A stretch of 64,000 nt of DNA from an uncultured Bdellovibrionales bacterium. Its GTDB lineage: Bacteria > Patescibacteriota > Minisyncoccia > Moranbacterales > DUUL01. Below the pieces are notes generated by a model. That model saw nothing but the letters and a program-made list of their open reading frames with translations. It did no database searches and was not told where the DNA came from. Position numbers and translations under genes: made by a program. Numbering within the stretch: position 1 is the first letter of the stretch; the number at the start of each line of letters is the position of its first letter. Location of the stretch: the NCBI GenBank assembly GCA_964346295.1, contig CAYFUG010000001.1, positions 20,325-84,324 on the forward strand. Reading direction: 5' to 3'. This document shows positions 19,744 through 20,366 of this stretch, piece by piece.

Positions 19744-20366
19744 TTATCGCCTCCAAAACTTCATTAGTAACGAGTTAGTTACCACGCTCACCGAAGAAAA
19801 GGCCACTGCTAGAGCCGCTAAAGCTGGCTTGAGTAAAAATCCAAAAAAGGATACAGGAGACCGGCTGCCACCGGAATACCGATAGTATTATAAAAGAAAG
19901 CCTAAAACAGATTCTGCTTGATCTTCTTTAGAGTATACTGAGAAATTTCAATCGCCTCCCGAACATCTTCCAGGTTACTCTTCACTAAAACAATTTCTCC
20001 GGTTTCCAAAGCCACATCGGTACCGCTTCCTAAGGCAATTCCCGGGTCTGCTTGGGCTAAAGCCGGAGTATCGTTCACTCCGTCACCTACCATCGCCACC
20101 ACATAGCCCTGTTTTTGCAATTCTTTAATTTTCTCTGATTTATCCCGAGACAGTACCTCCGCTAAAACTTCTGCTACTCCCAGCTTTTCACCCAGTGCCT
20201 CCCCTACTCCTTTTTTGTCACCCGTAATTAAGAAAACTTTTTTGTTTTGCGCTTGCAATTTTTTAACCACTGCCTCCGCATTGGATTTAAGTTGGTCCAT
20301 AATTGCCAATACTCCCACTGCCTTACCTCGAGCCACCAACAAAGGCGCCTGCCCTTGCTGGGTCAT
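19744..20366 (-). pseudogene. copA: Remnant of a heavy-metal P1B-type ATPase (copA-like): C-terminal HAD/ATP-binding part and TM7-8 only, with an in-frame TAG at the conserved Trp and a frameshift
   Basis: [39 protein letters not shown]...[26 protein letters not shown], then after a -1/+1 shift in a T5 run LLKPALAALAVAFSSVSVVTNSLLMKFWRR; about 450 N-terminal residues are absent (only about 230 bp to the next gene). Confidence 0.8.

Follow-up and report, generated by a model that had tools for sequence, protein, structure and literature searches.

Established features of P1B-1 ATPases include the TGDN motif and the Met of MxxSS, a Cu(I) ligand; the YN and MxxSS residues of the last two transmembrane helices serve as Cu(I) ligands. 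In Escherichia coli, copA is also known for a programmed -1 frameshift, in which a slippery site located after the first metal-binding domain gives rise to a short, useful product, the CopA(Z) chaperone, the gene being otherwise intact.

The locus described here lies on the minus strand of a 64-kb stretch of DNA, referred to at its full length as the window, and comprises the 3' third of a CopA-type P1B-ATPase gene (19744-20446). It shares with the solved CopA structures (Archaeoglobus fulgidus 3J08, 3J09 and 7R0G; Legionella 3RFU) the GDGVND motif, the QNLFW/YN helix and the xxSS helix, but is without about 70% of the protein and has a stop codon, two frameshifts, TGDK and VxxSS. Judged by these features, the relic is evidently derived from the CopA family, and we predict that it is not a functional member. 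Its likeness to E. coli copA is limited to a frame change within the gene: the 5' part of the relic is gone, and its shifts are no more than homopolymer indels, both located in the 3' third. We conclude that the region is very probably a non-functional remnant (pseudogene), within a Candidatus Moranbacteria (Patescibacteria) genome, of the gene for a copper-exporting P1B ATPase of the CopA type. As such it is an ordinary dead gene of a very well-known family, another instance and no new kind of feature.

Pseudogenes amount to ~5-10% of coding genes in metagenome-assembled genomes of Parcubacteria, where they have been read as ongoing genome streamlining (PMC11188291). The relic fits this pattern of pseudogenes in Patescibacteria (CPR), and differs in being a single hand-verified case with mapped lesions. 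Apparent disruptions of copA that keep far more of the gene, within or near cop operons, were seen in several other loci. Two of them (L025:5001-6185 and L026:2560-3744), identical in ENA and JGI samples, encode a 394-aa 'CopA' that passes straight from the HMA domain to the part running from DKTGT to the C-terminus, residues ~90-412 being missing; the gene sits within an otherwise intact cop operon (CsoR, DsbD/cupredoxin). At L035:1547-3744, also within a cop operon, copA is apparently split into ORFs of 446 and 247 aa, and in a WOR-1 locus (L034:1995-3861) an apparent copA is without residues ~378-431, the stretch from CPC to DKTGT, and its 5' part is not called as a gene. Unlike these cases, the relic has lost everything 5' of the hinge between the N- and P-domains and has no copper genes beside it. 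A further locus (L024:1-2035), at the end of a contig, holds two copA pieces that overlap in opposite orientations and may be an artefact of assembly.

Identity and extent of the remnant

The CopA homology was traced with a profile HMM built from 41 homologues and run against the three minus-strand frames. Once repaired (with the TAG read as Trp and one T put back), the remnant gives a 228-aa sequence that scores 362.8 bits against this profile, matches the Pfam family Hydrolase (PF00702, E = 7.7e-17) and matches the solved CopA structures 3J08, 3J09 and 7R0G with E = 1.4e-61 to 1.7e-61. The alignment to an intact CopA that an earlier, sequence-only reading of this DNA had called for runs end to end, with no gaps of note, over residues 497-712 of A. 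fulgidus CopA (3J09, E = 1.7e-61). On these scores, the CopA homology of the remnant is far beyond chance.

Translated along the minus strand, the window reads ...KKEQVEIPSEIKKEIEKMTQQGQAPLLVARGKAVGVLAIMDQLK... and then, in another frame, FFGFLLKPALAALAVAFSSVSVVTNSLLMKFWRR-TAA (features are listed in Table 1). GDGVND is kept in the P-domain; YN is present too, but 3' of the TAG. Where a functional P1B ATPase has an uninterrupted frame of ~650-800 codons, ~230 codons are left, and these are spread over three frames and contain the internal TAG.

Table 1. Mapped features of the copA remnant and of its 5' boundary, in window coordinates (-, minus strand).
Feature	Position	Strand	Basis
Whole recognizable remnant: end of the N-domain hinge, second half of the P-domain, last two TM helices	19744..20446	-	profile HMM, CopA structures
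FFGFLLKPALAALAVAFSSVSVVTNSLLMKFWRR plus native TAA stop (19744-19746); last TM helix, VxxSS replacing MxxSS	19744..19848	-	42.5 bits, E = 6e-15
T6 run, most likely site of a 1-nt deletion (T7 -> T6)	19843..19848	-	T7 restores PFFGFLL
Second-to-last TM helix with YN metal-site motif, beyond the stop	19849..19901	-	profile HMM, CopA structure alignment
TAG nonsense codon where CopA has the conserved Trp (TGG) of QNLFWAF	19902..19904	-	alignment
Main in-frame body KKEQVEIPSEI...KKIKQNLF; second half of the P-domain, TGDK replacing TGDN	19905..20417	-	alignment
ATG taken by gene callers as start of the 154-aa ORF (19902-20366); aligns with an internal CopA Leu, not a native start	20364..20366	-	alignment
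T6A6 homopolymer pair with 1-nt indel between 5' segment and main body	20412..20423	-	profile HMM
5'-most segment KLLLGNERFLK, matching the conserved 'LLGNrkL' stretch; frame differs from main body	20414..20446	-	profile HMM
TAA in the same frame as the 5'-most segment, at a Lys column of the profile; no homology is detectable 5' of it	20447..20449	-	profile HMM
Strong hairpin with a U run after it, separating the remnant from the DUF4012 stop (20597)	20490..20530	-	inverted repeat; fold z = -4.15

Toward the 5' end, CopA homology runs in frame through the ATG at 20364-20366 to about 20417 and continues in another frame to 20446, which extends the relic by ~80 nt relative to the sequence-only reading. 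Joining the 5'-most segment, KLLLGNERFLK, adds 13.8 bits to the profile score, as against 3.6 bits for the same-frame reading. The deletion breakpoint is placed by prediction at or just upstream of the TAA at 20447-20449.

In tblastn, the 751-aa CopA of a Moranbacteria-type locus (L031) matched the window only from residue 516 on; residues 1-515 had no match anywhere in the window, and longer homologues added none. Nor did the six frames of the 64-kb window contain DKTGT, CPC or the HMA motif GMxCxxC. The A-domain TGE of CopA was likewise absent, and the two TGE[SP] tripeptides that do occur (near 5958 and 36864) lie in unrelated sequence. We therefore consider that ~500-515 N-terminal codons (~1.5 kb) have been lost, which removes the HMA domain, the A-domain, the CPC helices, DKTGT and most of the N-domain, or ~70% of the protein. 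The earlier claim that the N-terminal two thirds had been deleted is thus confirmed, with its size, put at about 450 residues, revised upward to ~500-515 codons by the alignments, which begin at residue 516 of 751 and at residue 497 of 3J09. Its companion claim, that the missing residues have no room upstream, also holds: the DUF4012 gene ends at 20597, and no other part of CopA is detectable in the window. The missing 5' part was found neither in the window nor in L032/L033 (record positions 14315-95161; motif scans and tblastn), and these ~81 kb of the 97.6-kb contig carry no other P-type ATPase.

Six of the eight CopA helices are gone from the relic. Because the catalytic Asp (DKTGT), the core of the N-domain, the A-domain, the CPC helices and the HMA domain are all absent, no pump can be made from what is left. 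The designation 'copA gene relic' is correct given the homology, the nonsense codon, the frameshift and the loss of the N-terminal two thirds.

The hairpin that separates the remnant from the DUF4012 gene is stronger than expected from composition, none of 200 shuffles being as stable, and looks like the terminator of that upstream gene, outside the old copA gene. A promoter scan returned nothing promoter-like immediately 5' of the relic. On the minus strand it gave just two sites, one ahead of the pilin gene (19655-19627) and one within that gene (19343-19316), a yield no higher than that of shuffled sequence. As for mobile-element or repeat signatures, the breakpoint showed only short, chance-level repeats.

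Interruptions of the reading frame

The nonsense codon is explained by one G-to-A change, TGG to TAG. In the structure alignment, A. fulgidus CopA reads QNIFWALIYN at this site and LLYPIFGVVFRPEF at the frameshift site, which bears out the substitution at a conserved Trp that had been reported from the sequence; the position first given for it (19899-19901) is one codon off and corresponds to the following GCT codon. We also scanned metagenome contigs with a 29-nt pattern around the TAG in which the middle base was N. The codon was TGG in 11 of 11 unrelated copA genes that share exactly the 28 flanking bases; these were all that the scan returned, and no contig of the same species was among them.

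The 28 bases held constant in that pattern, CAGAATCTGTTTTGGGCTTTCTTTTATAA (window 19889-19917, minus strand), surround the Trp codon and are an observation in their own right, being identical in 11 otherwise diverged copA genes of unrelated metagenomes (L036-L046). Stretches of these genes that can be aligned at the DNA level are mostly shorter than 100 nt around the motif, at 65-97% identity to the relic. The QNLFWAFFYN helix thus displays striking conservation at the nucleotide level across diverged copA genes.

Downstream of the TAG, a frame change is required to recover ...FGFLLKPALAALAVAFSSVSVVTNSLLMKFWRR*, and the segment in the other frame scores 42.5 bits (E = 6e-15) against the CopA profile. 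The sequence-only reading had recognized this shift and assigned it to a T5 run (19835-19839), where a slip would yield PFLDFLL. Restoring a T7 in the T6 run at 19843-19848 instead produces LLYPFFGFLLKP, whose PFFGFLL is identical to that of two homologues (P0002 and P0092). The frameshift would thus be explained most simply by a T7-to-T6 deletion at this run, which we favor over the T5 site. A second frameshift, which the first reading had missed, is the indel in the T6A6 pair: restoring one A or one T there gives RFLKKEQVEI or RFFKKEQVEI, continuous with the CopA profile.

Amino acid positions that remain in the relic have changed as well. It deviates at five of the 61 columns that are at least 98% conserved among 119 homologues, these having been chosen by similarity to the relic itself. 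The five deviations are T to A, N to K in TGDN, P to S in AEVLP, D to N, and M to V in MxxSS. The homologues have a mean of 0.49 such deviations, and only two of the 119 reach five. Change at this many near-invariant columns is a sign of the relaxed selection expected of a pseudogene.

Two of the lesions fall in homopolymer runs, which are prone both to sequencing error and to ribosomal slippage, and this is what speaks for the view that the gene is intact and its lesions are sequencing or assembly errors, or that they are bypassed by programmed recoding (read-through plus frameshifts). The relic and its flanks are, however, 100% identical in a 97.6-kb JGI contig (3300012002, Ga0153774_1000055) and in two ENA assemblies, one for each of the runs ERR2437276 and ERR2437277; the JGI assembly may share its site, or even its DNA, with the ENA runs, such that the three assemblies stand for at least two read sets and not necessarily three. 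Over the 20.5 kb compared, the window and the JGI contig are 100% identical. For both ENA runs, microbial mats at Tebenquiche and La Brava in the Atacama were sequenced on the Illumina MiSeq platform (bioRxiv 10.1101/870428); the source organism comes from hypersaline Atacama mats. The presence of the same DNA in three assemblies, including at least two Illumina runs, rules out random sequencing error, and the TAG, as a substitution, is no homopolymer error.

The position of the relic bears on the same question. It sits mid-contig, with the DUF4012 gene on one side and the pilin gene on the other, and therefore no contig join can restore the N-terminus. With at least 500 N-terminal codons missing from the middle of a contig, even perfect repair or recoding would give no ATPase.

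Stop codon usage points the same way. The long ORFs of the window end in TAA (19), in TAG (13, besides that of the relic) or in TGA (9), and TAG closes the TIM gene (12081-12875), an rtcB-family gene (4773-6287) and the L9 gene (18446-18904), all of normal length. The earlier statement that TAG is a genuine stop elsewhere, made for tpiA and rtcB, is borne out. Since TAG is the ordinary stop of 13 other long ORFs in the window, recoding of TAG is not credible. The programmed frameshift of E. coli copA falls after the first metal-binding domain, a part that the relic does not have. In place of the signs of programmed recoding, we find that the 5' 70% is absent, that the arrangement occurs in no relative and that TAG is an ordinary stop. 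Error and recoding together are already close to refuted, and we give them a vanishingly small probability. The pseudogene reading, by comparison, is backed by homology in combination with truncation and with reproducible lesions of the DNA that break the frame.

The 154-aa ORF

Gene callers in three sources annotate an open frame with an ATG within the relic, and this is a reason to ask whether the 154-aa ORF could work as a protein of its own, in which a trimmed HAD or P-domain has taken on a new role. A Shine-Dalgarno sequence is absent in front of it, which is uninformative because only 8 of 42 window genes carry the motif. Other features speak against a separate protein. The ATG lies inside CopA, and homology extends past it in the 5' direction, over a frameshift; neither the DKTGT strand nor the first half of the Rossmann-like P-domain is present; the motif reads TGDK and not TGDN; and the ORF stops at the nonsense codon with recognizable CopA helices still downstream. 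Moreover, the ORF (P0001) forms a single-member protein cluster, and no homologue has the same boundaries. We consider a stand-alone function extremely unlikely; from the alignment, the ORF is best described as an accident of an internal ATG.

A broader proposal would be either that the remnant is retained because the half P-domain ORF is made and has a new role, for instance in partner or nucleotide binding, or that copA is recurrently part-deleted in ultra-small uncultivated bacteria and some trimmed or split forms, such as those of L025/L026 and L035, work. This we regard as very unlikely. Under the pseudogene reading, the 154-aa 'HAD hydrolase' ORF called by annotation pipelines should be marked as a copA pseudogene and should count neither as a hydrolase nor as evidence of copper export. 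The value of the present analysis is mainly one of annotation correction.

As a separate observation on translation signals in this genome, GGAG, GAGG or AGGA occurs within 20 nt upstream of the start in only 8 of the 42 long window ORFs, and Shine-Dalgarno sites thus appear to be little used.

Origin and genomic surroundings

The relic resembles the genes around it in composition. Its GC3 is 0.418, compared with a mean of 0.415 for window genes, and its synonymous codon score is 0.061, compared with 0.074 +/- 0.036. By codon usage and GC3, the relic is typical resident DNA. The flanking DUF4012 protein groups with Candidatus Moranbacteria/Moraniibacteriota (Patescibacteria), its nearest relatives being 68-72% identical. 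Among the homologues of the relic itself, the best are CopA fragments from Patescibacteria and similar uncultivated lineages (55-61% identity), the nearest CopA being 61% identical.

Through the DUF4012 neighbor (55-72% identity), we assembled a synteny set of 20 genome loci and three metagenome loci. The order DUF4012 / copA / pilin / L9 was present in none of the 20 genome and three metagenome loci, and no relative found has copA downstream of DUF4012. No gene order is shared with relatives, and thus an intact ancestral locus could not be read.

A full cop operon does occur in at least one of the relatives. At L031:536-5674, a Moranbacteria-type locus whose DUF4012 protein is 69% identical, we found genes for CsoR, a DsbD/cupredoxin/HMA protein, thioredoxin and the 751-aa CopA. 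This operon is divergent from its DUF4012 gene and lies on the side opposite to that of the relic, and its CopA is 47% identical to the relic. Given this position and this identity, orthology between the L031 CopA and the relic is unsupported. The locus shows that intact cop operons exist in the group.

These comparisons bear on whether the relic was ever a working gene in its lineage. A piece of a foreign copA, acquired for example by DNA uptake, could have been inserted by illegitimate recombination and have been decaying since. The novelty of the gene order around DUF4012, with copA downstream of it in no relative, is compatible with such an event, as is the finding that the only neighboring cop operon in a relative sits on the other side and encodes a CopA of 47% identity. 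The host-typical codon usage and GC3 argue against it, as do the patescibacterial and similar uncultivated sources of the best homologues, and no mobile element, tRNA or flanking repeat adjoins the relic. We judge a foreign origin to be unlikely. Because the GC3 and codon score are typical and a full cop operon is present in a relative, we favor the explanation that a once-working gene has decayed in place.

Under decay in place, the gene would once have been intact in the lineage. In the order of events that we infer, a deletion or rearrangement would have taken ~1.5 kb of the 5' part and placed the rest just after the DUF4012 terminator, whereupon selection on the remainder would have ceased. 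Drift would afterwards have introduced the two homopolymer indels, the TGG-to-TAG transition and the changes at otherwise invariant residues. Genome reduction is a reasonable context for such a loss in a Patescibacteria genome, and the relic offers a small, well-resolved example of how a gene is lost there. If the rest of the genome is without copA too, copper tolerance would depend on the surroundings or on a host.

Some further features of the window were noted in passing. Neither a tRNA gene nor an Rfam match reaching the gathering score was found over the full 64 kb. An unusually long stretch of ~485 nt without a convincing gene (21968-22452) separates the DUF4012 gene from a PfkB-family kinase gene and holds only short ORFs with no similarity to cop-operon proteins. 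Just downstream of the L9 gene, an IrrE/M78-peptidase-domain gene (17570-18118) overlaps an ORF for a 111-aa membrane protein (17251-17586), and the pair resembles a toxin-antitoxin or phage-type regulator module.
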